A DNA stretch of 64,000 nucleotides from Myxococcota bacterium (GTDB taxonomy: Bacteria > Myxococcota_A > UBA9160 > UBA6930): positions 5,024,001 through 5,088,000 of the forward strand of contig OZ245002.1 of NCBI GenBank assembly GCA_965223415.1, read 5' to 3'. This document shows, one piece after another, positions 5,099-48,694 of the stretch. Under the pieces are notes generated by a model. It worked only from the letters and a program-made list of their open reading frames with translations, had not been told where the DNA came from and did no database searches. Every line of letters begins with the position of its first letter. Position 1 is the first letter of the stretch. The translations under genes were made by a program, and so were the position numbers.

Positions 5099-5186
5099 CG
5101 TTCCTCTCCGTACGGACCGCGAGGGTGGCACGGTTCCGTCGGGCGCGCGGCGGCCGGAGCTGGCGTTGGGGGGCAACTTGCTGAGC

Positions 5187-5215: not shown

Positions 5216-5309
5216 TCGCGGGAATTTCGCAAGTGCTGGTTCCCAAAGGGGTTTCGGCGCCTCAGCCTGACCGCAGGTCAGGCGGCGACCGGTCCTCGTT
5301 CGCTTCGCC

Positions 5310-5453
5310 CTGGCGCCGGGGACGGCCATCAACGAGGGCGCGCTCGGCTACCACCTGCGCGAAGGCGAGCACGACCTCACGAGCTGGGACTGGGAGCGCT
5401 TCCTCGACTGGGCGGACCGGGCGCTCCCGGGCGCACCTACTGGAGGTTCTTGA
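5310..5453 (+). pseudogene. C-terminal remnant of a CE15 glucuronoyl-esterase-like alpha/beta hydrolase
   Basis: Reads [39 protein letters not shown]...*. In-frame TGA upstream at 5268-5270 and no ATG/GTG/TTG start. Confidence 0.55.
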
Positions 5454-6084
5454 GCACGCCCTTCAGGAAGTCGTCCTCGGAGACGGCGAACTTCTCGTGG
5501 AAGGCGTGACGCGCGTCGAGGAAGCGGTAGACCCGGCGCAGCAGCTCGCGGAAGGTCTCCACCACGCCTTCGCCGCGCATGGCCACCGCGGGGAAGGTCG
5601 GGATGTCGCCCCAGGCGCTGCGGATCTCCTCGAGGTCCTTCACGTCCGGGAGGTCGCGCTTGTTGAACTGCACGACCTTCGGAATGGCGTCGAAGTCGAT
5701 GCCGTTCGACTTCAGGTTCGCCTCCATGTCGCGCCAGCTGTAGGCGTTGGCGCCGGCGGAGGAGCGCTGGGAATCGGCGACGAAGACCACGCCGTCGGCA
5801 CCGGCCAGCACGACCTTGCGAGTCGACTTGTGCATCACCTGGCCCGGCACGGTGAAGAGCTTCAGCTTCATGGTGAAGCCGCCGGAGGTGCCGAAGGAGA
5901 CCGGCAGGAAGTCGAAGTAGAGGGTGCGGTCGTCGGCCGTGTCGAGGGTGACCATCTTGCCGCGGGTCTCGGGGTCGAGCAGCTCGTGGAGCTTCTGCAG
6001 GTTCGTGGTCTTGCCCGAGAGCGCCGGCCCGTAGTAGACGAGCTTCAGCACGATCTCACGGCCCGCCATGTTGATCTGCACCAT
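5437..6084 (-). CDS. mglA: MglA-family small GTPase
   Basis: [33 protein letters not shown]; the symbol denotes the family, orthology unproven. Confidence 0.85.
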
Positions 6085-7159: not shown

Positions 7160-9288
<2,129 letters not shown>

Positions 9289-9360
9289 CTCCGCTCCTTC
9301 CGCCGCCCGCGCTTCGAGCCCCGTGGGGTCTCCGACGCGGCGGCCAGACGTTAGCCCCTG

Positions 9361-33847: not shown

Positions 33848-34708
33848 CTAGCGGAGCGCGCTGGCGTCGCCGATCAGGACGCGGGTGCCGTCGTCCTTCT
33901 CGACCCAGACGTCGCATGCGACCCGGGTGCGCGTCCCCTCCGGCCACTCCTCGCGCACCCGGCCGTAGGCGGTGACGCGCTCGTCCACCCACAGCACGTT
34001 GGTGAGCTTCAGCGACATCTTGCCGCCCTGCAGGAAGCCCATGCCGAAGTGGTCGAGCATCACCTGAGCCGCGAAGCAGGTGGTCATCATCCCCTGCACC
34101 ACGATGTTCGGAAAGCCGATCTTCTGGGCCTCTGCCGCATCGGTGTGGTAGTTGCGTCCGGGACCGCTGAACATCCAGCAACGCCGGGCATCGATCCGCT
34201 TGCTCGTCGGCGCGAGATCTTCGCCCGTGGCCGTGGGAAACGGCGGACGCGGCGTCTTCTTCTTCGCCGTCGACTCGTCCACGACGTAGCCTTCGTCGCC
34301 CTCCCGCTCCTTCGGCGGAAGGAAGGACTGGTGCGTGCGTCCGCGCACGAGCAGCTGGCCGCTCTCGGCGTCCACCACGTCGGTCTCGTTCACGACGTAG
34401 TCGCGCCCGCGCTTGGCGTAGCGGCCGACGATCGTCGAGCGGGTGCGCACCCGGCTTCCGACGCGGATCGGTGCGAACAGCTCCCAGTCCTGCTGGCCGT
34501 GGAGGTTCCCGAACAAGTTCTTCAGGTACCACTCGCCGACGAACTGGTAGCACTCGGAGTGAAAGAGCAGCGGCGGTGCCACCTCTTCGTAGAGCGGATT
34601 GGGATCGTCCAGGGCGTCGGCGTAGAACGTGACCACCTCCGGAGTGACGTCGTAGGTATGGCTTCCGCAGTGACGGCCGACGAAGGCCGGCTGACCGAGC
34701 AGGTTCAC
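33848..34708 (-). CDS. Double hot-dog MaoC-like dehydratase family protein
   Basis: Two hot-dog halves; LDDPNPLY, NYHTDAAEAQKIGFPNIVVQG. Confidence 0.75.
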   Translation of the reverse strand: MNLLGQPAFVGRHCGSHTYDVTPEVVTFYADALDDPNPLYEEVAPPLLFHSECYQFVGEWYLKNLFGNLHGQQDWELFAPIRVGSRVRTRSTIVGRYAKRGRDYVVNETDVVDAESGQLLVRGRTHQSFLPPKEREGDEGYVVDESTAKKKTPRPPFPTATGEDLAPTSKRIDARRCWMFSGPGRNYHTDAAEAQKIGFPNIVVQGMMTTCFAAQVMLDHFGMGFLQGGKMSLKLTNVLWVDERVTAYGRVREEWPEGTRTRVACDVWVEKDDGTRVLIGDASALR

Positions 34709-34779: not shown

Positions 34780-36312
34780 GTGCCGAGCCCGCTCGACAAC
34801 GTGAGCCTCTGGATCCGCGAGCGCGCGCGCCTCGCACCGGAGCGCACGGCGGTCATCGACGCGGAGCGCAGCCTCGACTTCGCTGCCCTCGAGGAGCGGG
34901 TGGCCCGCGCCGCCGGTCTCCTGGCGGGGCATGGGATCGGGCACGGCGATCGGGTGGGCCTGCTGCTCGGCAACCGCAGCGCCTACCTGGAGCTGGTGTT
35001 CGCGGCCGCGCGCCTCGGCGCCATCGCCATGCCGATCAACACCCGCCTCGCCCCACCGGAGGTAGCGGAGCTGCTCGACGACGCGCGGCCCGGCCTGCTC
35101 TTCCACGAAGCGGCGCTCGAACCCCTGGCCCGGGCCAGCCTGGAGCGCGCCCGCCTCGCCTCGCCGGCGCCCCGCGCCGTGGGGGGCTCAGCCGATCCCT
35201 ACGAAGCCGCCCTCGCCGCCCAAGCGCCCCACGACACCATCGCCCCGGTCGCACCGGAGGATCCGATGATCCTCATGTACACGTCCGGCACCACCGGCGT
35301 TCCCAAGGGCGCGCTGCTCCCGCACCGCAAGACGCTCTACAACAGCCTCAACGCCCAGCTGTTCTTCGGCTGCACCCAGGACGATCGGGTGCTCGTGGTG
35401 GTGCCGCTCTTCCACTCCTTCGGGCTCAAGATCCTGGCGATCCCGGCCCTCTACTGCGGCGCCACGGTCTTGCTCCAGGACGCTTTCGAGCCCCACGCCC
35501 TGTGGCGCGCGGTGGAGGAGCACCGCATCACCTACTTCGGCGGGGTGCCCACGCTCTTCGGACCGCTTCAGGAGGCCCTCGACACCGATCGCCCCGACCT
35601 GTCCTCCCTCCGCTTCGTGTTCACCGCCGGCTCCGCGATCCCGGTGGAGCGCATCCATGCCTTCGAGGAGCGGGGGCTGCGCCTCAAGCAGGGCTTCGGC
35701 CAGACCGAGACCTCGATCCTCTGCTGCCTCGACGCCGCGGACGCGGTGCGCAAGGCCGGGAGCGTCGGGCGCCCGGTCTTCCACGGGGAGGTGCGTATCG
35801 TCCGCGAGCGCTCGCTCGCGGCGCCTCCCGCCCGGTGGGAGGATTGCGAGGTGGGCGAATCCGGCGAGATCGTCGTGCGCGGCCCCATCACCATGCTGGG
35901 TTACTGGGAGCGCCCGGACGCCAACGCCGAGACCCTGCGCGACGACTGGCTCCGCACCGGCGACCTGGGCGCCTTCGACGCCGAGGGCTTCGTCACCCTG
36001 ACCGGCCGCGCCCGCGACATGTACATCTCCGGCGGCGAGAACGTGTACCCGCGGCAGGTCGAGGCGGTCTACGAGGCCCACCCGGACGTGCACGAGCTCG
36101 CCGTCATCGGCGTGCCGGACGAGCGCTGGGGCGAGACCGGCCACGCCTACGTGGTGCTCGAGCCTGGCGCCCGCCTCGACGCGGAGGCGCTGCGAGCCTG
36201 GGGGCGCGAGCGGCTGGCCACCTTCAAGGTGCCGACGACTTTCGAAGCGGTGGGCGCGCTGCCGAAGACCGTTACCGGGAAGGTGCAGAGGTTCCGGCTG
36301 GCCGGACGCTAG
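34780..36312 (+). CDS. Acyl-CoA synthetase / AMP-binding enzyme
   Basis: YTSGTTGVPKG, GFGQTET, RTGDLG, SGGENVYP, TGKV. Confidence 0.92.
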   Translation: MPSPLDNVSLWIRERARLAPERTAVIDAERSLDFAALEERVARAAGLLAGHGIGHGDRVGLLLGNRSAYLELVFAAARLGAIAMPINTRLAPPEVAELLDDARPGLLFHEAALEPLARASLERARLASPAPRAVGGSADPYEAALAAQAPHDTIAPVAPEDPMILMYTSGTTGVPKGALLPHRKTLYNSLNAQLFFGCTQDDRVLVVVPLFHSFGLKILAIPALYCGATVLLQDAFEPHALWRAVEEHRITYFGGVPTLFGPLQEALDTDRPDLSSLRFVFTAGSAIPVERIHAFEERGLRLKQGFGQTETSILCCLDAADAVRKAGSVGRPVFHGEVRIVRERSLAAPPARWEDCEVGESGEIVVRGPITMLGYWERPDANAETLRDDWLRTGDLGAFDAEGFVTLTGRARDMYISGGENVYPRQVEAVYEAHPDVHELAVIGVPDERWGETGHAYVVLEPGARLDAEALRAWGRERLATFKVPTTFEAVGALPKTVTGKVQRFRLAGR

Positions 36313-36408: not shown

Positions 36409-36470
36409 ACGCGACGGGGCAAGCTAGCGAATCCGGCCCCTTCTGCTCTCTGCGGCCGGCGGGAGCGCTC

Positions 36471-37085
36471 TCAGCGGCCGCCCGCGCGGGCGGCCTGATC
36501 TCCGGCTGCGCTCCCGCTCGAGAAGACCTGCTTCTCGAGCGCTTCGACCCGGCTGCGCAGCGCTTCGAGCTCGCCGCGGGCTGCCGCCGGGTCGCTGGCG
36601 GACACCTTGGGGAGCCTGCCGAGCCCACCGGTGACGTGGTGGGCCACGCGCTTCACCAGGTTGTCGAGGCGAGGGATGATCTCGCCCAGGGTTCCCGATT
36701 GCACGAACACCGAGCGGGGGTCGCCGGCGTCCTCGCCCTGGACCTGCACGCAGCGGACGTCCAGGCTGGCGCCCTCTCCGAAGCGGGTGAAGGAACCGTA
36801 GAGCACCCAGCGGGCGCCGGCGGCGCGGCCGGCGCCCTGGGCGGCCTCGAGGTCGGTCGTGGCCTGCTCCGGATCGTCGACCTTGATGACCGCGACGCCC
36901 TTCTCCTGGCCCAGCCGGGAGGCGAGCATCTCCGCGAGGCCGGATCGCAGGTAGTCCCGATCCTCCGTGGCATGCACGACGATCGGGAGGATCGCCACGC
37001 GGGCGCGCGAATCGGCGGCGGCAGCGGTGCCCGCCAGCACGAGGAGCAGGACGGCCGCGGCAGCGATGGCGGACTCTCGTTTCAC
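36471..37085 (-). CDS. Exported protein with TolB-N/CsgG-like alpha/beta domain and coiled-coil tail
   Basis: Signal peptide (AAAAD), VAILPI, MLASRL, GARWVLYGS. Confidence 0.65.
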   Translation of the reverse strand: MKRESAIAAAAVLLLVLAGTAAAADSRARVAILPIVVHATEDRDYLRSGLAEMLASRLGQEKGVAVIKVDDPEQATTDLEAAQGAGRAAGARWVLYGSFTRFGEGASLDVRCVQVQGEDAGDPRSVFVQSGTLGEIIPRLDNLVKRVAHHVTGGLGRLPKVSASDPAAARGELEALRSRVEALEKQVFSSGSAAGDQAARAGGR

Positions 37086-37192
37086 GTCGGGCACTCCCCT
37101 GGGCAACGGCCCCTGCGTCGATCCGCACCGACGCGGGGTTCCCCCCGCGGAGACGGAGACGCGAGTCGTTCTATCAGGTGGGGAGGGGAGGG

Positions 37193-38851
37193 TCAACCAG
37201 ACGCGCCGAGAGGCAGCCGGACGCGGAAGCAGGCGCCCTCGCCGGGCCGGCTGGTGACCTCGATCAGACCGTCGTGCTCGGTCACGATCCGGTGGCAGAT
37301 CATCAGCCCGAGGCCCGTGCCGTGGTCCGGCCCCTTGGTGGTGAAGAAGGGATCGAAGATGCGCTCGAGGTCGTCCTCGCCGATGCCCTCTCCCGCATCG
37401 ACCACCTCGATGGTCGCGCCGTCCCCCAGAGCCGGCCCACCGGGCTCGATGCGGATGCGAACGGCCTCGCCCTCGGGGCTGGCGTGGATCGCGTTGAGGG
37501 TGAGGTTGAGGAGCAGCTGGTGGATCTGTTCGCGGGAGGCCATGAGCTTCGGCGAGGCGGGATCCGCGGTGATCTCGAGGCCCACCCGACTGCGCTCGGC
37601 CTCGGGAGCGACCAGCGTCACGACCTCGCTGGCAATGGCCCCGAGATCGCACGCCGAGCGCTTCGCCGCGCCGCTGTCCTCCCGGCCCAGACGGCTCATC
37701 GTCGCCACCAGCCCGCGAATGCGCTCCACCTCCGAGCAGGCGAGGCGGTGGTAGCTGCCCCAGAACTCCTCGTCGGCCTCGGTGCGTTTCGCCGGCGCGA
37801 GGCTCAAGAAGGTGTGGATCGAAGTGAGCGGGTTGTTGATCTCGTGGGCCAGCCCGGCCGCCAGCGTGCCCAGGGTGCCGAGGCGGTCAGCGCGCAGCAC
37901 CTGCTGCCGGCTCGACCGCAGGTCCTCCACCAGGCGGGCGTTCTGCAGCGCGATCGCCGCCTGGTGCGCCACCGCGGCGAGCAGCGTGCAATCGCGCGGC
38001 TCGAAGGGCGCCCCACCGCTGCGGTTGTCGACGGCCAGCGCCCCGAGCAGGCCGGCCTTGCCGACGAGTGGAACCACCAGCACGTCGCCCGCGATCTCAG
38101 TGAGCCAATCGCGCATGGGCGCCGGGTAGTCGAGGCAGTGATCGAGGGTGAGCAGGCGCGGCTCGCCGCGGGCCAGCGCATCCAGCAGCTCCGCCGCGTG
38201 CTCGCGGGTGAGCTGATGGCTCTCGAGGAAGGCCGCGGTGGGCACGTCGCTCGGAACGCGCCGATCGAAGACCAGACTCTCGCGGGTGGGGTCGTAGAGC
38301 AGCAGCGCCGCCCCGTCGTAGTGGAGCGTATCGGTCAGGGACGCCACCAGGAGCTCGGTGAGCTTATCGACCGCAAGCTCGCGCGTGATCGTCGCCGCGA
38401 GCTCTCCCACGGTTCGCAGCTCCCGCACCAGCGCCTCGCGCTCGCGGTCCAGCGCGTAGTGCTCGATCGCCCGCTTCAGGGCAACACGCATGTCCTCTGG
38501 CTGCCACGGCTTGGCGATATAGCGGTAGACGGAGCCGTCGTTGATCGCGTGGCTCAGAGTATCCACCGAGCCGTAGGCGGTGACCAGCATGCGCATGGTC
38601 TCCGGCGCCATCTCGCGCACCCGCGAGAGGAACTCGACGCCGGTCATGCCCGGCATCTTCTGATCCGAGAGCACGACGGCGAAGCGCTCGTTCATCAGCC
38701 GCTCGAGCCCCTCCTCGCCGGACGCCGCCGTCACGATGCGGAACTCGCGGCGGAAGGTCAGCTCGAAGACCCGGAGGTTCTCCGACTCGTCGTCCACGTA
38801 GAGGAGCGGGAAGGCACGTAGATCGACCGGGTGCGGTTGGCTATCCGGCAT
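37193..38851 (-). CDS. Hybrid histidine kinase REC-GAF-HisKA-HATPase
   Basis: YVDDE/SDQKMP/KPW receiver; GAF-like middle; AHEINNPL; NAIHA, DAGEGI, GTGLGL. Confidence 0.92.
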   Translation of the reverse strand: MPDSQPHPVDLRAFPLLYVDDESENLRVFELTFRREFRIVTAASGEEGLERLMNERFAVVLSDQKMPGMTGVEFLSRVREMAPETMRMLVTAYGSVDTLSHAINDGSVYRYIAKPWQPEDMRVALKRAIEHYALDREREALVRELRTVGELAATITRELAVDKLTELLVASLTDTLHYDGAALLLYDPTRESLVFDRRVPSDVPTAAFLESHQLTREHAAELLDALARGEPRLLTLDHCLDYPAPMRDWLTEIAGDVLVVPLVGKAGLLGALAVDNRSGGAPFEPRDCTLLAAVAHQAAIALQNARLVEDLRSSRQQVLRADRLGTLGTLAAGLAHEINNPLTSIHTFLSLAPAKRTEADEEFWGSYHRLACSEVERIRGLVATMSRLGREDSGAAKRSACDLGAIASEVVTLVAPEAERSRVGLEITADPASPKLMASREQIHQLLLNLTLNAIHASPEGEAVRIRIEPGGPALGDGATIEVVDAGEGIGEDDLERIFDPFFTTKGPDHGTGLGLMICHRIVTEHDGLIEVTSRPGEGACFRVRLPLGASG

Positions 38852-41657
38852 CCGCGCCCTCGGCGTCGACCGGGAGCACCACGGTCACGCGGGTGCCCTC
38901 TCCCGGCGTCGAAGCGAGCTCGATCCGGCCACCGTGCTCGCGCACGATGCGATCGGACATGGCCAGGCCGAGCCCGGTGCCCTGCCCCGCCTGCTTCGTG
39001 GTGAAGAACGGCTCGAACAGGCGGGACTGAACGTCCGCTTCGATGCCCGAACCGGTATCCGCCACCCGCACCTCCAGCTCCCCGTCGACGCGCTTTGCCT
39101 GGACGGAGATGGTCCCTTCTTCTCCTTCGAACGCCTCGATGGCGTTCTTGAGCAGGTTGAGGAACACCTGGTTCAGGCCGCCTGGGTCGCCGAAAACCGC
39201 CGGGAGATCCGCCGCGATCTCCACCTCCGTGGCGATGCCCGCCTCGCGCAGCTGATGCCCAAGGAGCTGCAGGGTCGAGCGCAGGCCGGCGCCCACGTCC
39301 ACGATGGCGTGGCCGCTTCGCCCCGGAGCTGCGAAGTCCCGCAGGTCCGCCACGAGCCGCGCCGTCCGGTCGAGGCCTTCGGTGACGATGCCCACCAGCT
39401 CGGCCAGCTCCGAGGCCATGTCCTCGAAGCCCATCTCCCGCTTCTTCCGCTCCAGCTGCAGCAGCTGCACCCGGAGCGTCTGGGGATCGTCCGCATCGAG
39501 CTCGCCGACCCAGGAGACCAGGCCCTGGATATCGTCCGCGTAGGCCCGGAGCGCCGCCAGGGAGTTGCGCGCGAAGTTGAGCGGGTTGTTCACCTCGTGG
39601 GCCACGCCCGCCGAGAGCTCGCCGACGGCCGCCAACCGCTCCGCCTGGACGAGCTGGACCTCCGCCTCCTTCAGCTCCTCGAGGGCCTGGGCGAGCTCCG
39701 CGTTCGACGATTCGAGCGCCGCGTTCTGCTCGCGGAGCTCGAGCTGGAGGGAGCGGATCCGCACCAGCGAGCGCGCCCGGGCCAGGAGCTCGCGGGGGTG
39801 GAAGGGCTTCGTCACGTAGTCGTCCGCTCCGAGCTCCAGCCCCTCGATCTTCATCTCGCGCTCGGCCTTGGAGGTCACCAGCATCACCGGCACCCCGCGC
39901 AGCGCCCCGTCCTGCTTGATCGCGCGACACAGCTCGGTGCCCGACATCTCGGGCATCATTACATCGGTCACGACCAGCTCGGGGGCCTGCTCGCGGACCG
40001 CCTCGAGAGCCTCCAGGCCGTTGCGCGTCGGCCGCACCCGGAACTCGCGACCGAGCAGGAAAGCCAGCAGCCGGCGCATCTCGGCATTGTCCTCGGCGAT
40101 CACGATCTCCGGCGTACCCTCGGCATGCTCCGGAAGCTCGAACACCCACTCGTCGCCGTGCCGGGTCGCCTCCCAGCGGCTCACCGTGTGCTCCACCGCC
40201 GCGAAGCGCCCCTCTCCGGCGTGCTCGAGGTCCATCGAGGTCTCGCTGGCCAGCGCCTCAAAGGACTTGGCTGCGGAGAGAGCGCGATTTCCCCCGGCCT
40301 CGAGCAGTACCTCCTCCTCGGGATCGTCGTCCGCCTCTCCGAGAGGCAGCAGCACGTGCATCTGCGACCCGTGCCCATCGCCCTCGCTCGTCGCCCAGAC
40401 CCGCCCGCCATGCAGCGCGACCAGCTCCTGCACGAGACTGAGCCCGATCCCCGTCCCCTCGTGCTTTCGGGTCGCCGACCCGTCCACCTGGGCAAAGCGA
40501 TCGAACACCCGCGCGAGCTGATGCTCCGGAATGCCGACGCCCGTGTCCTCGACCACGATGTGGACCCCCTCCGCATCGAGGCCCCGCCCGTCGCCGGCGG
40601 CAGCCGGCGCTCCGCGCACCGTGATCCCCCCGGAATCCGTGAACTTGAGCGCGTTCCCGATCAGGTTCACCAGCACCTTCTCGAGCGCATCCGGGTCGAC
40701 ATTCGCCGTGGGCAAGCCGTCGAATCCCTCGGCCCGCAGGTGAAGCCCCTTCCGCTCCGCCATCGGCAAGGCGCCGTCCACGATATCTGCGACCAGCCGC
40801 CTGAGCTCGATTGGCACCCGCCGCACCGACAGCTGCTCACTCTCGATCTTCGCAAGATCCAGCAGGCCATTGATGAGCTTCAGGAGGCGCAGCCCGTTGG
40901 ACTGCATCGTCCGCAACGTCCGGTCGAGCCCGCTGGGAATGTCGCCCATGTCCCCGGATCGCATGGCTTCGATGGGGGCGAGCATGAGGGTGAGCGGCGT
41001 GCGGAGCTCGTGGTGGATGTTGGCGGTGAAGCGGGACTTTGCGCGATCCAGGTCTTCGAGTCGGTCGCGCGCGCATTCGAGTTCGCGCCGCTTCGAGAAG
41101 TCCGAGTAGCGGATCTTCTCAAGGTTCACCGAACTCGCGACAGCGAGTATGAACGCCGAGGACAGAACCAAGCCGTGGAAGACCACCGTCGTGGATCCGG
41201 TCCCGTCGGAGCCCACCGCGACCATCAGGAAGAAGCACAGGCTTGTCGCGCCGCAGACGAGGACGGTCTGCCGGATTGTAACCGGGATGATCACCGGGAA
41301 GGCGCCGAAGAGCAGGACGAGTCCAGAGTAGTAGGGACTTGTGCCCGCGCCCGTGAAGGCGGAGATCGCCACGAGCATCATGCCGATGGATAGCCCCATT
41401 CCGATGCTGGCCACCTCAGGGGCCCTGGATCGGAACGCCCAGTAGAGGCCACCCATCACACCGGCTGTCGCAACACGGATTGGGGCGAAGACGCGCCACA
41501 TCTGGGGCTCGGCGATGGCGTCCAGCGGTATGAACCCCAGCACGATCGCGAGGCCGCAGGGGACGGCGATTCGAAGCGCGGGGGGCATTAACTCCCGGCG
41601 CACGAACTCCCGGTAGTCCGCGAAAGACTCGGCGGTCCTGGGCGGCACGGTCTCCAC
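38841..41657 (-). CDS. Membrane (~6 TM) hybrid kinase with two transmitter modules: TM-HisKA-HATPase-REC-HisKA-HATPase
   Basis: Hydrophobic N-terminus with SPYYSGL; HHELRTPL, NALKFT; AEDN/TDVMMP/KPF; AHEVNNPL, GTGLGL. Confidence 0.92.
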   Translation of the reverse strand: METVPPRTAESFADYREFVRRELMPPALRIAVPCGLAIVLGFIPLDAIAEPQMWRVFAPIRVATAGVMGGLYWAFRSRAPEVASIGMGLSIGMMLVAISAFTGAGTSPYYSGLVLLFGAFPVIIPVTIRQTVLVCGATSLCFFLMVAVGSDGTGSTTVVFHGLVLSSAFILAVASSVNLEKIRYSDFSKRRELECARDRLEDLDRAKSRFTANIHHELRTPLTLMLAPIEAMRSGDMGDIPSGLDRTLRTMQSNGLRLLKLINGLLDLAKIESEQLSVRRVPIELRRLVADIVDGALPMAERKGLHLRAEGFDGLPTANVDPDALEKVLVNLIGNALKFTDSGGITVRGAPAAAGDGRGLDAEGVHIVVEDTGVGIPEHQLARVFDRFAQVDGSATRKHEGTGIGLSLVQELVALHGGRVWATSEGDGHGSQMHVLLPLGEADDDPEEEVLLEAGGNRALSAAKSFEALASETSMDLEHAGEGRFAAVEHTVSRWEATRHGDEWVFELPEHAEGTPEIVIAEDNAEMRRLLAFLLGREFRVRPTRNGLEALEAVREQAPELVVTDVMMPEMSGTELCRAIKQDGALRGVPVMLVTSKAEREMKIEGLELGADDYVTKPFHPRELLARARSLVRIRSLQLELREQNAALESSNAELAQALEELKEAEVQLVQAERLAAVGELSAGVAHEVNNPLNFARNSLAALRAYADDIQGLVSWVGELDADDPQTLRVQLLQLERKKREMGFEDMASELAELVGIVTEGLDRTARLVADLRDFAAPGRSGHAIVDVGAGLRSTLQLLGHQLREAGIATEVEIAADLPAVFGDPGGLNQVFLNLLKNAIEAFEGEEGTISVQAKRVDGELEVRVADTGSGIEADVQSRLFEPFFTTKQAGQGTGLGLAMSDRIVREHGGRIELASTPGEGTRVTVVLPVDAEGADAG

Positions 41658-41696
41658 GGAAGCTGTATCGGCCCCCGTGGGGGGCTCCTTGATGCG

Positions 41697-43877
41697 CTAC
41701 TCCGAGGCCCCTTCCCGTGGCGCTGAAACCACCAATAAGGCCGGCAAGAGGAGGAGATCCGCGAGAAGGCAGACCCCCATGATCGCCGCTGTAACCAAGC
41801 CAAGGTTCCGAACGAGGTTGAAGCCCGAGAGCCCCAGCACTCCAAACCCCACCGCGATGACCACCGTAGTTCCCAACACTGGCGGGAGAGTCCGCCGCAG
41901 AGCGCCGGCGACCGCCTCCGCCGCTGGAAGCGTGCTTCTGTGTCGCCGATACTCCACAACCACGTGAATCGTGTCGTCAATTGCGATTCCAAGGGCAAGG
42001 GTGCCCAAGAGGACGGTGCCCGCGTCGAGAGGGATGTCGAGTAGGCCCATCAGCCCGAATGCGAACACCACTGGCGTCGCGTTCGGAATGAGTGAGACGA
42101 CCGTCATTCGAACGGACCGCAGAAGGATGCCTAGGACGATCCCAACCGCGACGAACGCGAACACCAGGCCGCGCAGCTGGCCCCTCTCGATCTCCCGCTC
42201 AGAACGCGCGTACTCGTGCATGATGCCAGTGACCTGTGCATCGAAGTCCGCCGGGCCGAAATCCTCCCACCACCCCTCCGACGCACGAGCGACCCGAAGG
42301 AGATCGTTAGAACCGTTGTTATCCACACGCAGCAGCAAGTTCGCCTGCCGTCGATCCGCAGTGACGACGTCTCCCATGTAGTCAACCGACTCGAGCAGCA
42401 GCAGGTACTGCTCGATTCCGTTCTCATCGACGGGTAGAGGGTATTGGGAGTCGCCGAGGAACCCACCGTGGAGTTGTCGTAGGGGGTCCGCTAGGGAAAC
42501 TGCCTTGCCCACTTCGGGCAGTTGACCGAGAAAGTGCTGGAGCCCATCTATAGAGCGCAACACGTCCGGATCTGTGACTCGCCGGTCCCCCTCCGAGGAG
42601 ATCACAACGTTCATGGGGCTAATTCCCGAGAGACGGGTCCGAATCTCGCGGTAGTCCTTTCGAGGAGTGCTGTCCTCCTGGAAGTAGAGAATCACGTCGG
42701 TTTCGATGTCGAGCCGCGAGATGCCAACTCCGACTACGAGGAGGATTGCAGCCCAACCGGCCAGGATGGCTACCGGACGCGTCAAGAGCGAGCGAAGGTG
42801 GCCCACGATCGCGTCGCGGGCCCGAACGACGAGGACCGACCGGACCTCGGCCACTGGGAATAGAGCCAGAAGCGCGGGCGCTAGCGAAATCGCAGCTGCG
42901 AGCACGAACAGACATCCCAACGCTCCGAATGCACCGATCCAGCGGATTACATCAATTCGCACCAAGGTCATCGCCACGAAACCGATCGCCGTCGTGACGC
43001 CCGAGACCACGATTGGGGCAACCACTCGCACGAGCTCCACCTCAATCCGACCCGGGGCCCCCTGGGCGGCCGCGATTGCCGAGACCACATGAAGTGAATA
43101 TGCACAGCCCAGCGCGAGCAGCACCGATGGAAGAACAACTGTGCTGATTGTGAGAGGAACCCCCAGCGCACCCATTGTGCCCAGCGTCAGGAGGCTCCCC
43201 ACTGATCCGACGGCAAGAACGACGATTGGTACCCGAGCGCCCCTCAATGGAAGCATGAGTAGAAGGCCGATGATCAAGCCGGTGACCGGGAAGAAGATCG
43301 CCAGCTCACTTCGCATCAAGCGATTGGTCTCAGTGCGGAAGACGGGCCCCCCTGAGATCCAGGCTGAGCCGAGTCGCTTAGATGATTCCCGAACGGCTTC
43401 GACGACGCGTTGATCGTTCTCGGCGCCGATGTCGTCCATTCGAACGACCACGGCGAAGGTCCGTCCATCCTCTGAGACCACTGCCTTGGGAAGGACCCGG
43501 TCTTTCTCGATCTTTGCGACGGCGCCAGCAACCTCTCCATCCGAGGCGCCTGGTTCGATCGCGGGATCCAGCTCGAGTGTTCCGTCAGGCCCCGCGTGGA
43601 CGAGAGGCATGGTGCTGATGCTGTCGACGCGGCGAACACCGGCAACCTCCTCGAGATCTGCCGAGATAGAGGCGATAGTGCGAACCACTTCCGGGTCGAA
43701 GGCGTGCTGCGCCTCGGCCGCAAGCACGACGATCTCGTCGCCACCGAAGGTGTTGGTGGAGGACTCGTAGAACCTCCACGATGGGCTCTCGCGACTCAGC
43801 ACGCTGTCCGTCGAGGTTTCGATGTTCAATCGCGCGAGCCCTGCCAGGGAGGCCACTGCGAGGATGGCCCATACCAA
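41697..43877 (-). CDS. MMPL/RND-family lipid transporter (true start probably upstream of 43877)
   Basis: Two repeats of TM, large loop and 5 TM; GIAIDDTIH; frame stays open back to 43958. Confidence 0.88.
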   Translation of the reverse strand: MVWAILAVASLAGLARLNIETSTDSVLSRESPSWRFYESSTNTFGGDEIVVLAAEAQHAFDPEVVRTIASISADLEEVAGVRRVDSISTMPLVHAGPDGTLELDPAIEPGASDGEVAGAVAKIEKDRVLPKAVVSEDGRTFAVVVRMDDIGAENDQRVVEAVRESSKRLGSAWISGGPVFRTETNRLMRSELAIFFPVTGLIIGLLLMLPLRGARVPIVVLAVGSVGSLLTLGTMGALGVPLTISTVVLPSVLLALGCAYSLHVVSAIAAAQGAPGRIEVELVRVVAPIVVSGVTTAIGFVAMTLVRIDVIRWIGAFGALGCLFVLAAAISLAPALLALFPVAEVRSVLVVRARDAIVGHLRSLLTRPVAILAGWAAILLVVGVGISRLDIETDVILYFQEDSTPRKDYREIRTRLSGISPMNVVISSEGDRRVTDPDVLRSIDGLQHFLGQLPEVGKAVSLADPLRQLHGGFLGDSQYPLPVDENGIEQYLLLLESVDYMGDVVTADRRQANLLLRVDNNGSNDLLRVARASEGWWEDFGPADFDAQVTGIMHEYARSEREIERGQLRGLVFAFVAVGIVLGILLRSVRMTVVSLIPNATPVVFAFGLMGLLDIPLDAGTVLLGTLALGIAIDDTIHVVVEYRRHRSTLPAAEAVAGALRRTLPPVLGTTVVIAVGFGVLGLSGFNLVRNLGLVTAAIMGVCLLADLLLLPALLVVSAPREGASE

Positions 43878-43958
43878 GAGAGCTGTGCGTGGGTGCCGGA
43901 GGGATCCAACCGCCGTTCGCTCAAGCGGCCGGGACGTGAGGTCACGAAGCTGCAGGGG

Positions 43959-46409
43959 CTACGCCCTCGTCGCTGAAGCCACGATTGCCTGCTGCGGCGA
44001 GCCCAGGCAGGGAAAGACCGACTCGACTCGCAGGCCGGCGCTCTCGATCAGCTTTCGGAAAGCGATCTCGCTCCAGAACTGAAACGCGCCGGCTTCCTCC
44101 AGATCCATCAACTTCGCACCGTCGTTGAGGAACGCCCGAGCCGCTTGCATGATCTGCGCGCGGGATGCGCCGGGAAAGAAGGAATCGAACTGGCCATCTT
44201 CGACGCCAGCGAGAGCGCGCGTGTAGATCTGCGAGATGTCCGCATCGGGCCTCATTGTTGAGAGAACCAACCTCCCTTGCGGGCGCAGAACTCGCGCGAT
44301 CTCGGTCAGGACAGACTTCGCATCCGGTACATAGCTGAGCAGGAGAGATGCGAGCACTCGATCGCAGGAACCGCTGGCAAGGGGAAGGACCGAACGCTTG
44401 AGGTCGGCCTGGACGAACTCCACACTCAAGCTCGCATCTCGGCGAATCTGGGTCTTCACGTGTTGGAGGGCACCCATCACGAGGTCGCACTCAACGAGCT
44501 GCAGGGCGGGCTGGGATCCAGCCCGACGCAGGTAGCTCGGAAACGCGCCCGTTCCCGAGCCGAGATCGAGAACGCGATTGCCTGGGGTCAGCTGGAGATC
44601 CGCGACCTGGCGCTGCATAAACTCCTGGTAGTCGTGTGTCGCGTTCAGAAGCGCGATCCCCATACCAGAGGATCTTCCAAGCAAGTAGTCCGCCCAGAAG
44701 TCGGCGACATTCGGCTCGGCCTGCCCGAGGCGAGACCGCTCGGCCGCACTCCGCTTCGCAAGATCCCGAATGCTGGGCGCCCGTCCGCTGATGCGGCGCT
44801 CCAACGCAGCCTGGCTCACCTCTTCAGCGATGAGCTGGAAGACGTCGAGCGCCTCTTGGCTAGAGCGAAGCTGGTGACCCGTAGGCACCTCTAGGAGCTT
44901 GCGGTTGCCAGCACTCCCGCAGGCGAGGACCTCCCGCACGCGATCGAGCTCCATCCACGCGTCGAACCTCCCGTGGAGCCACGTGATGGGCACGAAGATC
45001 TGGGAGAAATCCCGACGCGAATCGGAAAGGAAGGAGAGCCCTTGTTGCGTTGCATCCACCCCCGCATAGTCGATATCGACGGTGACCCCGAGGATCTCCT
45101 GGCGGCCAAACGACAACCCCTTTTCGATGCCGCCCATGTAGTCGACGCCACCAGATATGACGCGCATCATCGACTGAATATCGGCCGTACCTACCACGCA
45201 GATCCACGCATCGACGGTCTCGCCGCGATCCGAAGCCAAATACGCTCTACCTTCGATCGAGGACGCGCTAAACGTGACCAGCGCCAGCTTCTCGCAGCCG
45301 CGTTCACGGCGCAGGAAGTTGGCTGCAGCACGGATGTCCTTGACCCCCTGGGAAAAGGTGAACCGGTCGTGCTCCCGACCTGGCTGCAAGCAATCGGGGT
45401 CCCTGTAGGACTCGCCGCGCTTTCGTACACCGTCGAATCGAAGGATAGAAACGGGCTGGCTCGCCGCCCGAAACGTCGCCAGGAGAGTCCTGGCGAGCGG
45501 CATTAGGGTCTCCTTTGTTCGGCCCCATGCCGGCGGGATCACCACACCGAGGCGTCCCTCCCCCCTCCCCCACTCGTCCGCGATGCCTCGAATGGGCTCG
45601 CGGTCCTCGGTCTCGAACTCCACAAGATGGATCTTTGTGTCACGAGTTCCGAGCCCCGCTCGGCGCAGCAGCTGCTCAGTTGCACTCGCGGTTGCTCCCG
45701 ATGCCACAGCCAACTTCCGCAATAGCCGCTGGCTTGAAGAGCGCTCAACGATCGCGTCCTTTCGATCCACACCGACCGCCGGAGCGTAGGGTACGGGCGA
45801 TGTCTTGAGGTGTATCCGCGACCAGCCGTTCGCATCCCGAGTTACGCCCGCGACCCTGGCGAAGCGGTGGCTGTGGCGGGATGCACTCGTGTCGAACTCG
45901 AGTTCGAAGGAGGCTCCCGATTGCGGGGCACTCGTCGCTTCCGCGCGAATCGCCAACCCCGCTTCCGAGGAGTCAAGGATCTCGCCTCGGAACGCTTTTC
46001 CTTCGCCTCGCAAGACGACGCGTTCCCCGGACAGGTCCCCCGACCGCAGCCGCTCACGCCGCTCGTTCTGAAACACGACATCGGGAACCCGCACGATCAA
46101 CGGCGATTCGGATTCAGGCGACAGCGGATCAGCCGAGAAGAAGTACCGGTTGCCGTTCAGTTCGAAGCGCAGGAAGATCTGCTCCCGTCCGGTCGCGGCG
46201 AAGTTCTCCGTCGCCAGCACCAGCTCTCCGCCCCGGATCTCCTCGATCGTCGCGGACTCGGGGCGTACCGCCCTGTTCATCCCGCGATAGAGGGTCGCTC
46301 GCTCGCTGGCAGCCTGCTCCAACAGGGCGCGAACGCCCGACACATCCCGCATGCCCTCAGGATGAAGCCGAGCAAGATCGTCCACACCGATCAACTGCGA
46401 AACCGCCAC
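43959..46409 (-). CDS. Fusion protein: YcgR-N/PilZ + LuxD-like acyl-thioesterase + class I SAM methyltransferase
   Basis: PilZ RERLR and DSSEAG; hydrolase RFDG...GES, TFSAS, FDAW, TGHQL; methyltransferase VLDLGSGTG. Confidence 0.82.
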   Translation of the reverse strand: MAVSQLIGVDDLARLHPEGMRDVSGVRALLEQAASERATLYRGMNRAVRPESATIEEIRGGELVLATENFAATGREQIFLRFELNGNRYFFSADPLSPESESPLIVRVPDVVFQNERRERLRSGDLSGERVVLRGEGKAFRGEILDSSEAGLAIRAEATSAPQSGASFELEFDTSASRHSHRFARVAGVTRDANGWSRIHLKTSPVPYAPAVGVDRKDAIVERSSSQRLLRKLAVASGATASATEQLLRRAGLGTRDTKIHLVEFETEDREPIRGIADEWGRGEGRLGVVIPPAWGRTKETLMPLARTLLATFRAASQPVSILRFDGVRKRGESYRDPDCLQPGREHDRFTFSQGVKDIRAAANFLRRERGCEKLALVTFSASSIEGRAYLASDRGETVDAWICVVGTADIQSMMRVISGGVDYMGGIEKGLSFGRQEILGVTVDIDYAGVDATQQGLSFLSDSRRDFSQIFVPITWLHGRFDAWMELDRVREVLACGSAGNRKLLEVPTGHQLRSSQEALDVFQLIAEEVSQAALERRISGRAPSIRDLAKRSAAERSRLGQAEPNVADFWADYLLGRSSGMGIALLNATHDYQEFMQRQVADLQLTPGNRVLDLGSGTGAFPSYLRRAGSQPALQLVECDLVMGALQHVKTQIRRDASLSVEFVQADLKRSVLPLASGSCDRVLASLLLSYVPDAKSVLTEIARVLRPQGRLVLSTMRPDADISQIYTRALAGVEDGQFDSFFPGASRAQIMQAARAFLNDGAKLMDLEEAGAFQFWSEIAFRKLIESAGLRVESVFPCLGSPQQAIVASATRA

Positions 46410-46446
46410 GCCGCCGCCTCTTCTCTTGCCGTTCGCCAGCCCCGAG

Positions 46447-47352
46447 TCACGCGAAACGAGGAGTGAGTCCTATAGCTCTCCACAACGGCAGGGTTCTACG
46501 AGACACCATCTGAAGCTGCACGAGGAACGGGAGAATCCGCGACGTGCAGTCCCGGAAGAACTCGCGGCGGTGTACCGAGCGGCGCGAAGAACGCCACAAG
46601 CGCCACGCTTCACTACTGTCGGAGGCTAGGCCGGATCGGACGTAGACCTGCGGTGGGTTCATGGCTTCAAAGACAAGAAGCAGGACGGCAGGTGCGGCCA
46701 GGTCGATTGCTGCTCGTCGAACCGCACCAGAACTCTCATAGGCATCGTGGAGGTTCATTCTGGCATAGTCCATGTGCCGCGCCTCCTCCATGCGATGAAT
46801 CATGCCAACGTCCCGAAGGGTCGGATGCTTGGCGCCGAGCTCGAGAGCGCGGGCAATGAACGTGTCCGTGATGTCCTCAACCGCGAGCATCCCTAGGAAG
46901 TAGAGCGCGTTCCCTTTGGCAACGGCCCACTCCCCTACCCGTTCGACCGCACCATGGAAACCGGCAGGTGGGTACGGACCTACGCCGATCTCGCTCACGA
47001 GCCGAGAAAACATGCGGCTGTGGCGAGCCTCTTCCTCGATGACCTTCAGCCGGTATCGGGTCACGTCCGCAACCGGGTCGGAGTTCCGAACCAAGCGGGC
47101 CAAGGCCTGATTCAGGACGCCCTCGAAGCGGATGAATGACGAGAACATCGCGGCCGTCTCATGGAGTGCGAGCTCGGCCTTCTGGGCCTCGGAGAGGCGA
47201 TCGAACTCGGGCGTCCCAAACAGGCTCAGCGCCTCGTCAGGGAGGAGGGGGGGCGCGCCGCGGAACGGGACGCCCCACTCAACAGCCTCGTCCGGATCGA
47301 TGAAGTTCCTGACCGAGGCGCTCTCGAGCTTCTTGAGCCGACTGACATCCAT
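46447..47352 (-). CDS. AurF-like ferritin-fold diiron oxygenase
   Basis: FE...EEARH and VE...HRMEEARH carboxylate/His ligand sets; LSLFGTPEFDRLSEAQK. Confidence 0.82.
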   Translation of the reverse strand: MDVSRLKKLESASVRNFIDPDEAVEWGVPFRGAPPLLPDEALSLFGTPEFDRLSEAQKAELALHETAAMFSSFIRFEGVLNQALARLVRNSDPVADVTRYRLKVIEEEARHSRMFSRLVSEIGVGPYPPAGFHGAVERVGEWAVAKGNALYFLGMLAVEDITDTFIARALELGAKHPTLRDVGMIHRMEEARHMDYARMNLHDAYESSGAVRRAAIDLAAPAVLLLVFEAMNPPQVYVRSGLASDSSEAWRLWRSSRRSVHRREFFRDCTSRILPFLVQLQMVSRRTLPLWRAIGLTPRFA

Positions 47353-47591
47353 GTGTGGTCGGGAATCCTGGGCTAGGGCGATCCTGAAGAGCTCAAGAGT
47401 AACGGCAAAACGCGGTTTTAGACCAAAGAACTGCCGATTCGTGAGATGGGGCGAATCGACTACAGGCGCTGGCGAGATTAACCCGTTTAGGGTGCCATAC
47501 TACACCCACATATTGCCCCGTGGGAAGCGTAAGCGCGCCCGTGCGAGCGATTCTGGGCACAAGTGGACGCTCCCGGACAGGCCAGAAGGCC

Positions 47592-48596
47592 CTAAGGCGA
47601 GCCCGATATCTGTCTCGCCTTGACCCCCGCTTCACGAAGGAGCCGGACCGAAACGTCTCCGAGCGGATAGGCGATATCGAAAACCACCTCCGCGATCCCC
47701 GAATTGATGATCATCTTGGTGCAGAGCAGACACGGGCAGAAGGTCGAGTAGAGTGTCGCCCCCCGGACCTGGACCCCGTGATACGCGCTCTGGGTAATCG
47801 CGTTCTCCTCGGCGTGGGAGCAGACGCATTCGCCGAGGTCTTTGCCCCCCGGCCCGAAGTCGTTGCAGCGGGGACAGCCACCTTCGTTGCAGTTCGTGGT
47901 GCCGCGAGGAGTCCCGTTGTAGCCGGTGGCGATGATGCGGCGGTCGATCGTGAGGACGGCGGCCACCTTGCGTTTCACGCAGTTGCTACGAGTGGCCACG
48001 ACGCGGGCGATGCTCATAAAGTACTCGTCCCAGTCGGGTCGCCGAAAGAACTGGTTGCCCCGAAGAAGGCTCTGGATCGCGGCGTGAAGCTCAGCGAGAT
48101 CCCCATCGTTTCTGAGGGTGTGGTCGGCAAGGTCGCGGACGCCAAGGAGCTGCTGGCTCGCTGGATCGGGACTGGCCAGCTCAGATCCCTCCAGGCGACG
48201 CAGCTCTTCCAGGGTGTGAGGATCACCGGAGCGGCCCCGCGTTCTCAGTCGTTCGAAACGGATGGATTCATCAGCGTCCACCCAGATAAGGCGGAAATCC
48301 GACGCTAGCTCACGGAGAGCATCCACTTCCGCGGGATGACGGATCGAGTCGACCACGTAGTTGTGATGCGGCTCGAGGTAGGTCATCAGGCGACGCGCTA
48401 GGGCGCCTTCACCCTCCGCTTCGCGCAGAGCCCGCCCCGTTTGGATCATGCGCTCCCGGGTCTCATCCAGCCCCTTGCGAGCAAGTTCCTTGCGGATGAC
48501 GTCGGAGAGTGACCAGGCCGAGAAGCTCCGACCCTCCAGGAAGGACACGACCTCGCCCTTGCCCGCTGCGTAGAGGCCGGACACCCCGATGATCAT
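47592..48596 (-). CDS. P-loop nucleotide-kinase-like domain fused to dCMP deaminase
   Basis: MIIGVSGLYAAGKG, SDVIR, DSIRHPAE; RPDWDEYFM, GYNG, HAEENA, PCLLC (Zn). Confidence 0.9.
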   Translation of the reverse strand: MIIGVSGLYAAGKGEVVSFLEGRSFSAWSLSDVIRKELARKGLDETRERMIQTGRALREAEGEGALARRLMTYLEPHHNYVVDSIRHPAEVDALRELASDFRLIWVDADESIRFERLRTRGRSGDPHTLEELRRLEGSELASPDPASQQLLGVRDLADHTLRNDGDLAELHAAIQSLLRGNQFFRRPDWDEYFMSIARVVATRSNCVKRKVAAVLTIDRRIIATGYNGTPRGTTNCNEGGCPRCNDFGPGGKDLGECVCSHAEENAITQSAYHGVQVRGATLYSTFCPCLLCTKMIINSGIAEVVFDIAYPLGDVSVRLLREAGVKARQISGSP

Positions 48597-48694
48597 AGAA
48601 TTGGCTCCCCTGGTCTGATTCGCGATCGGTGCCTGATCTTTGCACCTACGCGGCGCCAAGCCAACACGGTCGTTTCGCCGAAGGCGGCCCCTTA

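Follow-up and report, generated by a model that had tools for sequence, protein, structure and literature searches.

The stretch of DNA analysed here (the window; 64,000 nucleotides, positions 5,024,001 to 5,088,000 of contig OZ245002.1, assembly GCA_965223415.1) is a ~70% GC stretch of the 5.83-Mb single-contig genome of an uncultured bacterium of the phylum Myxococcota. On its minus strand lies a cluster of packed genes centred on an enzyme in which PilZ, LuxD-like and methyltransferase domains are fused (the fusion enzyme), together with an AurF-like oxygenase, an MMPL transporter and two histidine kinases (HK1 and HK2). An earlier note on this DNA, made from the letters alone, had described five packed minus-strand genes and had proposed that they release, oxidise, methylate, export and sense an acyl chain. 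A check of the open reading frames (ORFs) of the window returned the five genes at exactly the same coordinates, and all the domain calls were upheld by Pfam, structural comparison and motifs. The cluster has the following features (aa, amino acids; TM, transmembrane; c-di-GMP, cyclic di-GMP; SAM, S-adenosylmethionine).

47353..47591, minus strand: intergenic region 5' of the AurF-like gene, 239 bp, candidate promoter region (position only)
46447..47352, minus strand: AurF-family diiron oxygenase, 301 aa, putative accessory tailoring enzyme (Pfam PF11583, ExxH pairs)
43959..46409, minus strand: fusion enzyme, whole, 816 aa (ORF and domain calls)
45765..46409, minus strand: fusion enzyme residues 1-215, YcgR-like N-terminal barrel plus PilZ, putative c-di-GMP receptor (Pfam, motifs, model)
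44775..45647, minus strand: fusion enzyme residues 255-545, LuxD-like alpha/beta serine hydrolase/acyltransferase domain (structure match, triad)
43959..44642, minus strand: fusion enzyme residues ~590-816, class I SAM-dependent methyltransferase domain (Methyltransf_11, SAM motif)
41697..43877, minus strand: MMPL/RND-type transporter, 726 aa, ~12 TM segments (PF03176)
38841..41657, minus strand: HK1, whole, 938 aa (HisKA and HATPase twice, REC)
41088..41657, minus strand: HK1 residues 1-190, sensor domain of 5-6 TM segments with no large periplasmic loop, variable and enzyme-matched (hydropathy, conserved residues)
38841..41087, minus strand: HK1 residues 191-938, kinase core 1, receiver and kinase core 2, the conserved transmitter half (Pfam, boxes)
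37193..38851, minus strand: HK2, 552 aa, soluble REC-GAF-HisKA-HATPase kinase overlapping HK1 by 11 bp (Pfam)
36471..37085, minus strand: sixth gene, secreted protein of 204 aa (tblastn with the homolog from locus L008; frame and start checked)

The spacings first described were reproduced: a 37-bp gap separates the AurF-like and fusion enzyme genes, an 81-bp in-frame gap the fusion enzyme and MMPL genes and a 39-bp gap the MMPL and HK1 genes, and HK1 and HK2 overlap by 11 bp. The MMPL ORF begins at a TTG start codon. The upstream intergenic region, described before as comparatively AT-rich and ~240 bp long, has 58.6% GC against 63.4% in the surrounding 10-kb block and 69.9% in the whole window. 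It is proposed to hold the promoter because of its position alone, since a scan of the cluster for the sigma-70 consensus returned 0 promoter-like sites against 1.1 expected. A terminator scan returned three sites against 6.5 expected, none of them intergenic on the minus strand. Of eight sequencing runs listed for a 9,991-bp stretch, none is recorded as RNA, and seven are of unrecorded kind.

The putative five-gene operon of the earlier note stands as far as those five genes go, but a sixth co-directional gene (36471-37085) had been overlooked. It was found by tblastn with its L008 homolog (72% identity over 185 residues), and its product carries a signal peptide and a conserved domain and ends in a coiled coil. 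The protein matches no Pfam or NCBIfam family; the ESM Atlas gives a weak pointer to FlgO/CsgG/LpoB-like clusters (feature score 0.91), which we take as a lead only. Two other ORFs were considered as downstream genes and rejected, neither of them with a Pfam or NCBIfam match: dn234 (36424-37128) comes from a wrong, Arg-rich frame across the true sixth gene, and dn318 (35188-36144) is an antisense shadow of an acyl-CoA ligase gene on the plus strand (34780-36312).

The fusion enzyme has no TM segment, and its motifs were followed in an alignment of 25 full-length homologs that are 38-50% identical. The predicted model of its N-terminus shows two beta-barrels. PilZ (PF07238) scores 24.4 bits against a cut-off of 22.5 when residues 1-215 are searched alone and 21.4 bits, below the cut-off, with the whole protein, and it reaches 50-60 bits in distant long-form homologs. 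In the RRxxxR motif R117, R118 and R122 are invariant; in the DxSxxG motif G151 never varies, and conservation of D146 and S148 is 90% or higher. BcsA, Alg44 and YcgR are known PilZ-gated enzymes and YcgR-type receptors, and the module shares with this group a PilZ barrel preceded by an N-terminal one, the linker carrying RRxxxR and the barrel DxSxxG. Its output is different, being a soluble acyl hydrolase-methyltransferase rather than a glycosyltransferase or the flagellar motor. By analogy, the covalent union of the PilZ module with catalytic domains suggests allosteric licensing by c-di-GMP.

The middle domain (residues 255-545) matches no Pfam family even at E<=1. Its predicted model has a mean confidence (predicted local distance difference test) of 93.2 when modelled alone, and that of the whole fusion is 83.5. 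LuxD (1THT) is the rank 1 match to the domain model by Foldseek (E 9.1e-16, TM-score 0.77) and by VIA-align (Z 27.7, root-mean-square deviation 2.6, 259 residues aligned; next families Z 24-26), and it is the best alpha/beta-hydrolase match from the whole-protein and domain models alike. A profile of 37 domain sequences found LuxD as the sole significant sequence match in the PDB (E 5.2e-4, 22.4 bits). The triad S381, D483 and H512, invariant in the homologs, aligns residue for residue onto S114, D211 and H241 of LuxD, the last two of which we take to be catalytic, and in both proteins the nucleophile stands in a non-GxSxG context ('TFSAS' in the fusion, 'AASLS' in LuxD); LuxD-type acyl transferases presumably correspond to Pfam Acyl_transf_2. 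According to PMC6279958, S114 of LuxD is the acylated serine of a classical triad, and LuxD unloads myristoyl-ACP (ACP, acyl carrier protein). The domain differs from LuxD in being fused between PilZ and methyltransferase domains, in having neither luxCE partners nor luminescence genes, and in an identity of only 15%. A thioester substrate is likely for it, though not established.

The third domain is, by sequence, of the generic class I SAM-dependent methyltransferase type. Methyltransf_11 scores 66.8 bits against a cut-off of 21.2 and the SAM motif residues D615, G617 and G619 are invariant, whereas the BioC model of NCBIfam gives 53.7 bits against a cut-off of 184.95. Foldseek places the domain among small-molecule and lipid methyltransferases, with 8ys9 at rank 2. 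The PilZ-LuxD-like-methyltransferase fusion first read from the letters is thus borne out in each of its three parts, by the PilZ motifs, by LuxD as best structural and PDB sequence match with its triad, and by the SAM motif. That its product is a methyl ester is a guess.

The AurF-like protein matches PF11583 with 157 bits (cut-off 29.6) over profile positions 8-279 of 282, and the ExxH metal motifs EEEARH and MEEARH are present in its translation. A search against PDB sequences gave no match at E<=0.1 (best E 0.67). The MMPL protein scores 111.3 bits with PF03176 (cut-off 20.5), and hydropathy gives ~12 TM segments in two clusters. It partially matches the HAE3 and HpnN models of NCBIfam, with 204.7 bits for HAE3 (TIGR00921), under the cut-off of 351.9. 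Compared with mycobacterial MmpL proteins it is shorter, 726 aa, and stays below the subfamily cut-offs.

HK1 had been described as a hybrid kinase of ~6 TM segments without a large periplasmic domain. The membrane part agrees with this (5-6 TM segments, no large periplasmic loop), but the protein has two complete kinase cores. Pfam finds HisKA twice, HATPase twice and REC once, in the order TM, kinase, receiver, kinase, and both H-boxes, the N, G1, F and G2 boxes and the context of the receiver Asp can be read. The sensor domain is almost wholly membrane-embedded by hydropathy, and F42, D46, R61, G103, Y109, G112, G119, P125 and F164 are conserved in 48 sequences. MASE8 (PF20968) was rejected as its identity, with 21.1 bits for the whole protein and 19.4 for the domain alone under a cut-off of 26.2, and Pfam finds in HK1 no methylation helices of the methyl-accepting chemotaxis protein (MCP) type. 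HK2 has the Pfam domains REC-GAF-HisKA-HATPase. The operon encodes no DNA-binding regulator.

The fusion enzyme belongs to a family of 343 clusters (50% identity) at E<=1e-30 among 1.84 billion representatives, and nearly all related records are labelled Myxococcota or 'delta proteobacterium' metagenome-assembled genomes (MAGs). Among 401 genomes of an even phylum sample, 51 match it at E<=1e-20; 27 of these have near-full-length orthologs, all of them in the order of the window, and the other 24 have a long form (950-1200 aa, 27-37% identity) whose PilZ domain is strong. A scan of species-representative genomes, compared by tblastn with the window proteins, yielded 69 other loci with a conserved neighbourhood, so that the arrangement is not due to chance.

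HK1, including its N-terminal part, lies co-directionally 3' of the fusion enzyme, directly or after MMPL, in 49 of the 50 loci that have at least 3.5 kb of DNA downstream of the enzyme. By coordinates, a match to its N-terminal 220 residues adjoins the enzyme in 25 of the 27 same-order and 21 of the 24 distant enzyme-positive genomes, and the adjacency holds across families at 27-45% enzyme identity. The kinases and the biosynthetic genes, whose co-occurrence had been named as the test of the proposal, therefore do occur together, also in distant Myxococcota. The sole informative locus without HK1 (L063) carries a PilZ-less enzyme relative of 687 aa (9539-11602), followed by a phosphate-selective porin.

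The five-gene composition proposed at first is constant in its enzyme-HK1 pair, but the other members are optional. Of the 44 loci with informative DNA on both sides, 31 have MMPL adjacent: in 23 it stands between enzyme and kinase, and in 8 it is divergent upstream. HK2 follows HK1 in 26 of 42 informative loci (15 scored by script and 11 from coordinates, where HK1 cross-matched the HK2 kinase core and its end was over-extended), and in L064 it is inverted upstream. The sixth gene accompanies HK2 in 26 of 28 loci and is absent from all 14 loci that lack HK2. On a quick maximum-likelihood tree of 49 enzymes (IQ-TREE), at least 19 changes are needed to account for the six architecture labels, so that accessory genes must have moved, been lost or been gained time and again while the enzyme-HK1 adjacency stayed.

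AurF is the rarest member. Its orthologs (43-47% identity) were found in one of the 69 loci (L006) and in three other genomes of the 120 in the order sample (G303, G447 and G438), and every one of them sits inside this cluster. In G303 the order is deaminase-AurF-enzyme and in G447 regulator-AurF-enzyme; in G438 HK1 is divergent from AurF-MMPL-HK2 and the enzyme lies on another contig. Just downstream of that rearranged locus (L082, G438:C43) there are integrase-core and IS200-like transposase genes at 9018-10842. The rarity of these orthologs makes oxidation, a step proposed in the earlier note, a lineage-specific tailoring at most. AurF was also considered as a marker of one sensor specificity group and dropped, as the TM identity to the window is 31% for L006 and 35% for G303 (the latter over the N-terminal 220-residue HK1 query, i.e., the TM domain and the start of HisKA).

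Variant clusters carry other enzymes. Three genomes of the same order have HK1 but no detectable LuxD fusion, and two of them have enough flanking DNA to be read. G268 (L084, G268:C98, 9160-15420) has a luciferase-like monooxygenase upstream, a 512-aa PilZ-methyltransferase, a methyltransferase like cyclopropane-fatty-acyl-phospholipid synthase, MMPL and HK1. In G098 (L085, G098:C4, 9090-13794) a 328-aa methyltransferase, MMPL and HK1 stand next to a fatty-acid desaturase. Further loci add a short-chain dehydrogenase/reductase, a NAD_binding_4-type reductase, luciferase-like monooxygenases and, in three loci, LolA-like proteins. In two distant, large-genome Myxococcota a PAS-GGDEF-EAL gene directly follows the HK1 homolog of the long-form enzyme (L073, 14171-16348; L074, ~4297-5568). 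The variable neighbours point consistently to fatty-acyl chemistry, optional oxygen-dependent tailoring and c-di-GMP.

The two halves of HK1 have different partners. Identities were compared across 40 loci, the window included, excluding those with a truncated or frameshifted HK1 or enzyme or with less than 90% of either covered by a single alignment. The identity of the TM domain correlates with that of the enzyme at r = 0.81, and the cytoplasmic half correlates with the TM domain at 0.53 and with the enzyme at 0.54. Given the cytoplasmic half, the partial Mantel correlation of TM domain and enzyme reaches 0.74, a value attained in none of 2000 permutations, against 0.18 for TM domain and cytoplasmic half given the enzyme (21 of 2000 as high). 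Where MMPL is present (30 loci), the TM domain follows the enzyme given MMPL (0.61) and not, given the enzyme, the physically nearer MMPL gene (-0.03; 1240 of 2000 as high). MMPL itself follows the enzyme (r 0.87; 0.81 given the cytoplasmic half), and in the 20 loci with HK2 this kinase follows the cytoplasmic half of HK1 (0.61) and not the enzyme (0.07).

The same division is visible within single pairs. Between the window and its nearest relative, L008, identity is 76% in the cytoplasmic half of HK1, 66% in HK2 and 78% in the neighbouring deaminase, against 26% in the HK1 TM domain and 42% in both the enzyme and MMPL, and it steps from 13-40% to 85-95% near HK1 residue 190-200. A like step occurs in L005-L051, L012-L049, L019-L048 and L018-L012. 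In L037-L070, L014-L019 and L045-L033 the TM domain is conserved as much as the rest of HK1, or more, and hence it is not intrinsically hypervariable. At ~70% cytoplasmic identity the pairs split into those with 26-43% in the TM domain and 42-45% in the enzyme and those with 71-83% and 63-72%, respectively. On the tree of the HK1 cytoplasmic half (FastTree), members of the two major enzyme clades (99% support) are completely interspersed, with 13 label changes against a mean of 13.8 after shuffling. Sisters on that tree with 100% support, namely L005 and L051, the window and L008, and L048 with L014 and L019, are separated on the enzyme tree. Such co-divergence of sensor and enzyme is the pattern that a product-receptor pair would leave. 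By analogy, the mosaic resembles the specificity cassettes of quorum sensing, and both recombination and joint accelerated divergence would be compatible with it.

Beyond the operon, the window holds the following neighbours.

47592..48659, minus strand: kinase-dCMP deaminase fusion (P-loop kinase AAA_18 plus deaminase), frequent upstream neighbour of uncertain membership (Pfam, NCBIfam)
48695..51673, minus strand: SARP-like Trans_reg_C/AAA_16/TPR regulator, frequent upstream neighbour of uncertain membership (Pfam, NCBIfam)
34780..36312, plus strand: long-chain-fatty-acid-CoA-ligase-like AMP-binding gene, convergent to the operon (454 bits against a cut-off of 476)
33848..34708, minus strand: MaoC/FAS1-type dehydratase (domain scan)

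In the 50 loci with at least 5 kb of upstream DNA, the deaminase fusion is present in 28 and the regulator in 17. The former, whose deaminase is of the dCMP/ComEB type, is the most conserved neighbour (56-78% identity). It matches the NCBIfam 'anti-phage dCTP deaminase' model partially (126 bits against a cut-off of 400) and, judging by sequence, could be a housekeeping gene, a part of the system or a defence gene. The acyl-CoA ligase gene recurs downstream of the cluster in 9 of the 69 loci. The GC content at third codon positions (GC3) is 0.71-0.76 in the regulator, deaminase, AurF, fusion enzyme and MMPL genes (0.72 in MMPL) and 0.88-0.91 in HK1, HK2 and the sixth gene, and its mean in 13 other genes of the window is 0.93. 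This delimits a 10-kb low-GC3 block (41697-51673) with a sharp edge at the MMPL/HK1 junction, and the composition suggests that the block has a history unlike that of its flanks, possibly having been replaced from a lower-GC relative.

Some records of the set call for a remark on their labels or assembly. A Myxococcota-type cluster lies in 16 records titled as Spirochaetales/Spirochaetaceae, Anaerolineaceae, Planctomycetales, Acidobacteriota or Opitutales MAGs (L010, L020, L021, L023, L024, L026, L030, L035, L038, L040, L047, L053, L058, L059, L061 and L071). These loci nest among the Myxococcota rows on the enzyme and kinase trees, and mislabelled bins or contigs are likelier than transfer between phyla. 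In L016, L017, L019, L068 and L069, MAGs with 'MFD' isolate names, the enzyme or kinase genes come in 2-4 tblastn pieces, which look like frameshifts from assembly errors rather than pseudogenes; rows of this kind were left out of the co-divergence comparison.

We propose, at about even chances, that the cluster is a self-contained lipid signal circuit, in which a methylated acyl lipid is synthesised under licence from c-di-GMP, exported, and sensed by the adjacent kinase. The fusion enzyme would bind c-di-GMP through its YcgR-like PilZ module, and binding would license both catalytic domains. The LuxD-like Ser-Asp-His domain would then accept a fatty-acyl chain carried as a thioester on ACP or CoA, its methyltransferase neighbour in the fusion would use SAM to methylate the released or transferred product, and the AurF-family oxygenase would modify it in some lineages, including this one. 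MMPL would move the product into or across the envelope, where the domain of 5-6 TM segments of HK1 would sense it within the membrane, and the signal would pass from core 1 of HK1 to the receiver, to core 2 and, where present, to HK2. The enzyme, the optional oxygenase, the exporter and the HK1 sensor domain would thus form a specificity module, exchanged or diversified as a unit, and the HK1 kinase cores with their receiver, HK2 and the secreted protein a transmitter module inherited separately. Linkage, domains and co-divergence speak for the lipid-signal interpretation of the earlier note; its oxygenase is not a general component, and the steps of chemistry and sensing, i.e., the acyl-ACP substrate, the methyl ester or other methylated lipid, gating by c-di-GMP, export and ligand recognition, are what we infer around them. 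Diversification into matched enzyme and sensor types favours communication over an autocrine or envelope-state cue.

Several points weigh against this proposal. The organism is uncultured, and we infer the chemistry, the c-di-GMP binding and the expression of every member from sequence. Pfam does not recognise the LuxD-like domain, and in VIA-align feruloyl esterases, monoacylglycerol lipases and the DcsB thioesterase score only 1-3 Z units under LuxD, so that the fold alone does not fix the substrate. Among solved sequences, the methyltransferase comes closest to MitM and to N-methyltransferases of phosphoethanolamine and phosphatidylethanolamine rather than to carboxyl methyltransferases, and the Mtf2 fatty-acid O-methyltransferase model of NCBIfam gives 42.3 bits, far below its cut-off of 400. 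In 13 of the 44 informative loci the MMPL gene is not adjacent, and no output regulator was identified for the circuit. The co-divergence statistics compare identities among kin, for which Mantel permutations are known to be liberal, and under purely vertical descent two fast-evolving regions can correlate better with each other than with a slow one; against this confound stand only the split of the pairs at matched identity and the tree conflicts that have support. The concordant pairs with high TM identity come all or largely from one clade, and the enzyme and kinase trees are both quick ones. Finally, the GC3 break of the window falls at the MMPL/HK1 junction and not 3' of the TM domain, the first 200 codons of HK1 having a GC3 of 0.78-0.90.

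The strongest alternative is that the cluster remodels envelope lipids. The enzyme would de- or transacylate and methylate a membrane or outer-membrane lipid at high c-di-GMP, e.g., during surface or biofilm growth, MMPL would carry that lipid to the outer membrane, and the kinases would watch the state of the membrane or keep the pathway in homeostasis. As BcsA and Alg44 illustrate, PilZ domains that bind c-di-GMP typically gate the synthesis of envelope or matrix, and this counts against the signal circuit in that it fits remodelling equally well. The solved-sequence matches of the methyltransferase to phosphatidylethanolamine and phosphoethanolamine N-methyltransferases, the cyclopropane-fatty-acyl-phospholipid-synthase-like gene of the G268 variant, the likeness of MMPL to the HpnN and HAE3 lipid transporters, the LolA-like genes of three loci and the secreted FlgO/CsgG/LpoB-like protein (a weak lead) that accompanies HK2 all agree with it. 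However, a homeostatic sensor is not expected to diversify with one enzyme while its transmitter half stays conserved, and lineage-variable tailoring enzymes (AurF, the desaturase, the monooxygenases) fit specificity diversification better than a core envelope lipid. The enzyme-kinase pair is also kept in the 13 loci where the exporter is not adjacent, and the usual two-component operons of lipid remodelling encode a DNA-binding regulator, which this operon lacks. We consider remodelling on balance unlikely, although the c-di-GMP gating and the lipid-transport neighbours keep it a serious rival.

The co-divergence of TM domain and enzyme could also come from a protein-protein interface. The enzyme or MMPL would then dock on the HK1 membrane domain and control it through contact or reversible methyl-esterification, either forming a complex that senses flux or acting as an adaptation module of the CheR/CheB kind; c-di-GMP would be the real input, with no free ligand to be sensed. 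A methyltransferase fused to a serine esterase does recall the pairing of CheR and CheB. A PilZ protein that binds the methyltransferase CheR has been described (bioRxiv 10.1101/814665). Nevertheless, the esterase domain is LuxD-like and not CheB-like, HK1 lacks the MCP-type helices that Pfam would recognise, and the variant clusters swap the fusion for lipid-modifying enzymes. An enzyme without TM segments and a sensor domain almost wholly embedded in the membrane leave little surface for contact, and the failure of the TM domain to track MMPL given the enzyme argues against a transporter-kinase complex; on these grounds docking on HK1 is the less likely, and we hold such direct coupling improbable. 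Inherited synteny of functionally unrelated genes is very improbable: all loci come from one phylum and most from one order, and housekeeping-looking genes (the dCMP deaminase fusion, the acyl-CoA ligase, TilS, FtsH) are syntenic too, but the adjacency persists at 27-45% enzyme identity across families, through many rearrangements of the other genes and through exchange of the cassette relative to the HK1 cytoplasmic half, and the sole PilZ-less variant (L063) is the sole locus without the kinase.

Returning to the lipid signal circuit, its closest described organisation is the phcBSRQ operon of Ralstonia. As described in PMC8578825, this operon encodes the methyltransferase signal synthase PhcB, the sensor kinase PhcS, the receiver-plus-kinase protein PhcR, which has no DNA-binding domain, and the receiver PhcQ; the signal is methyl 3-hydroxymyristate or methyl 3-hydroxypalmitate, and the PhcB and PhcS sequences group by signal type. 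In the cluster, too, one putative operon joins a SAM methyltransferase, presumably the synthase, to a membrane sensor kinase and to a receiver-kinase protein that has no DNA-binding domain, and the grouping of PhcB and PhcS is paralleled by the co-divergence of enzyme and sensor. The cluster differs in that LuxD-like acyl hydrolase and PilZ receptor domains share one chain with the methyltransferase, in that an MMPL exporter is usually present, and in that the sensor kinase and the receiver-plus-kinase are fused in one 938-aa protein followed by a REC-GAF kinase. The resemblance is one of organisation only, and there is no Phc-named model among the NCBIfam matches listed (the best 25 of 33).

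Other signalling systems offer partial likenesses. In Vibrio CqsA/CqsS and Xanthomonas RpfF/RpfC the synthase gene stands by that of a polytopic hybrid kinase without a large periplasmic domain, as the enzyme does here. Those synthases are a pyridoxal phosphate-dependent acyl-CoA transferase and a crotonase, respectively, instead of a LuxD-like hydrolase with a methyltransferase, and those systems are without PilZ and MMPL. The specificity (pherotype) cassettes of peptide quorum sensing, Bacillus comQXP and Staphylococcus agrBDCA, comprise the signal-making genes and the membrane sensor part of the kinase, while the cytoplasmic kinase and its partner are conserved. The cluster shares with them a variable signal/sensor block, a conserved transmitter and a boundary at the junction of the two, although its presumed signal is a lipid and not a peptide, and the pattern runs between species-level genomes of an order and not between strains.

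The earlier note knew of no described system with this composition, and our literature searches found neither a description of this architecture or cluster, nor, among the papers listed, a PilZ-hydrolase-methyltransferase architecture, nor a paper joining 'PilZ' and 'LuxD'. In the passages searched, a PilZ survey of M. xanthus (PMC8316039) mentions no methyltransferase, and a homolog could stand in its figure of domain architectures or its supplements. What is new here is the PilZ domain on the synthase, the LuxD-like domain fused to a methyltransferase, the MMPL exporter, the dual-core kinase and the phylum.

A wider reading takes these loci as a hitherto undescribed family of lipid-based cell-cell communication systems in uncultured Myxococcota, in which c-di-GMP directly licenses the synthase, the synthase, the exporter and the membrane sensor domain of the kinase have diversified as interchangeable specificity cassettes, and the lipid 'pherotype' could serve in kin discrimination; we offer it as possible, though doubtful. 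Nearly all carriers in the phylum are uncultured, and the long-form homologs in large, probably cultivable myxobacterial genomes of 9-10 Mb are an experimental entry point. The co-divergence predicts which enzymes and sensor domains should pair and where the domain boundary lies. If the proposal is true, this would be the first c-di-GMP receptor domain on a signal synthase, and it would couple the second messenger of the sessile/motile choice directly to the making of a lipid cue, extracellular or in the envelope. Phc-type signalling, in which a membrane kinase and a kinase relay read a methylated fatty acid, would then reach a phylum known for social life and kin discrimination, and the evolution of pherotype cassettes, so far known from peptide signals, would be extended to that phylum as well.

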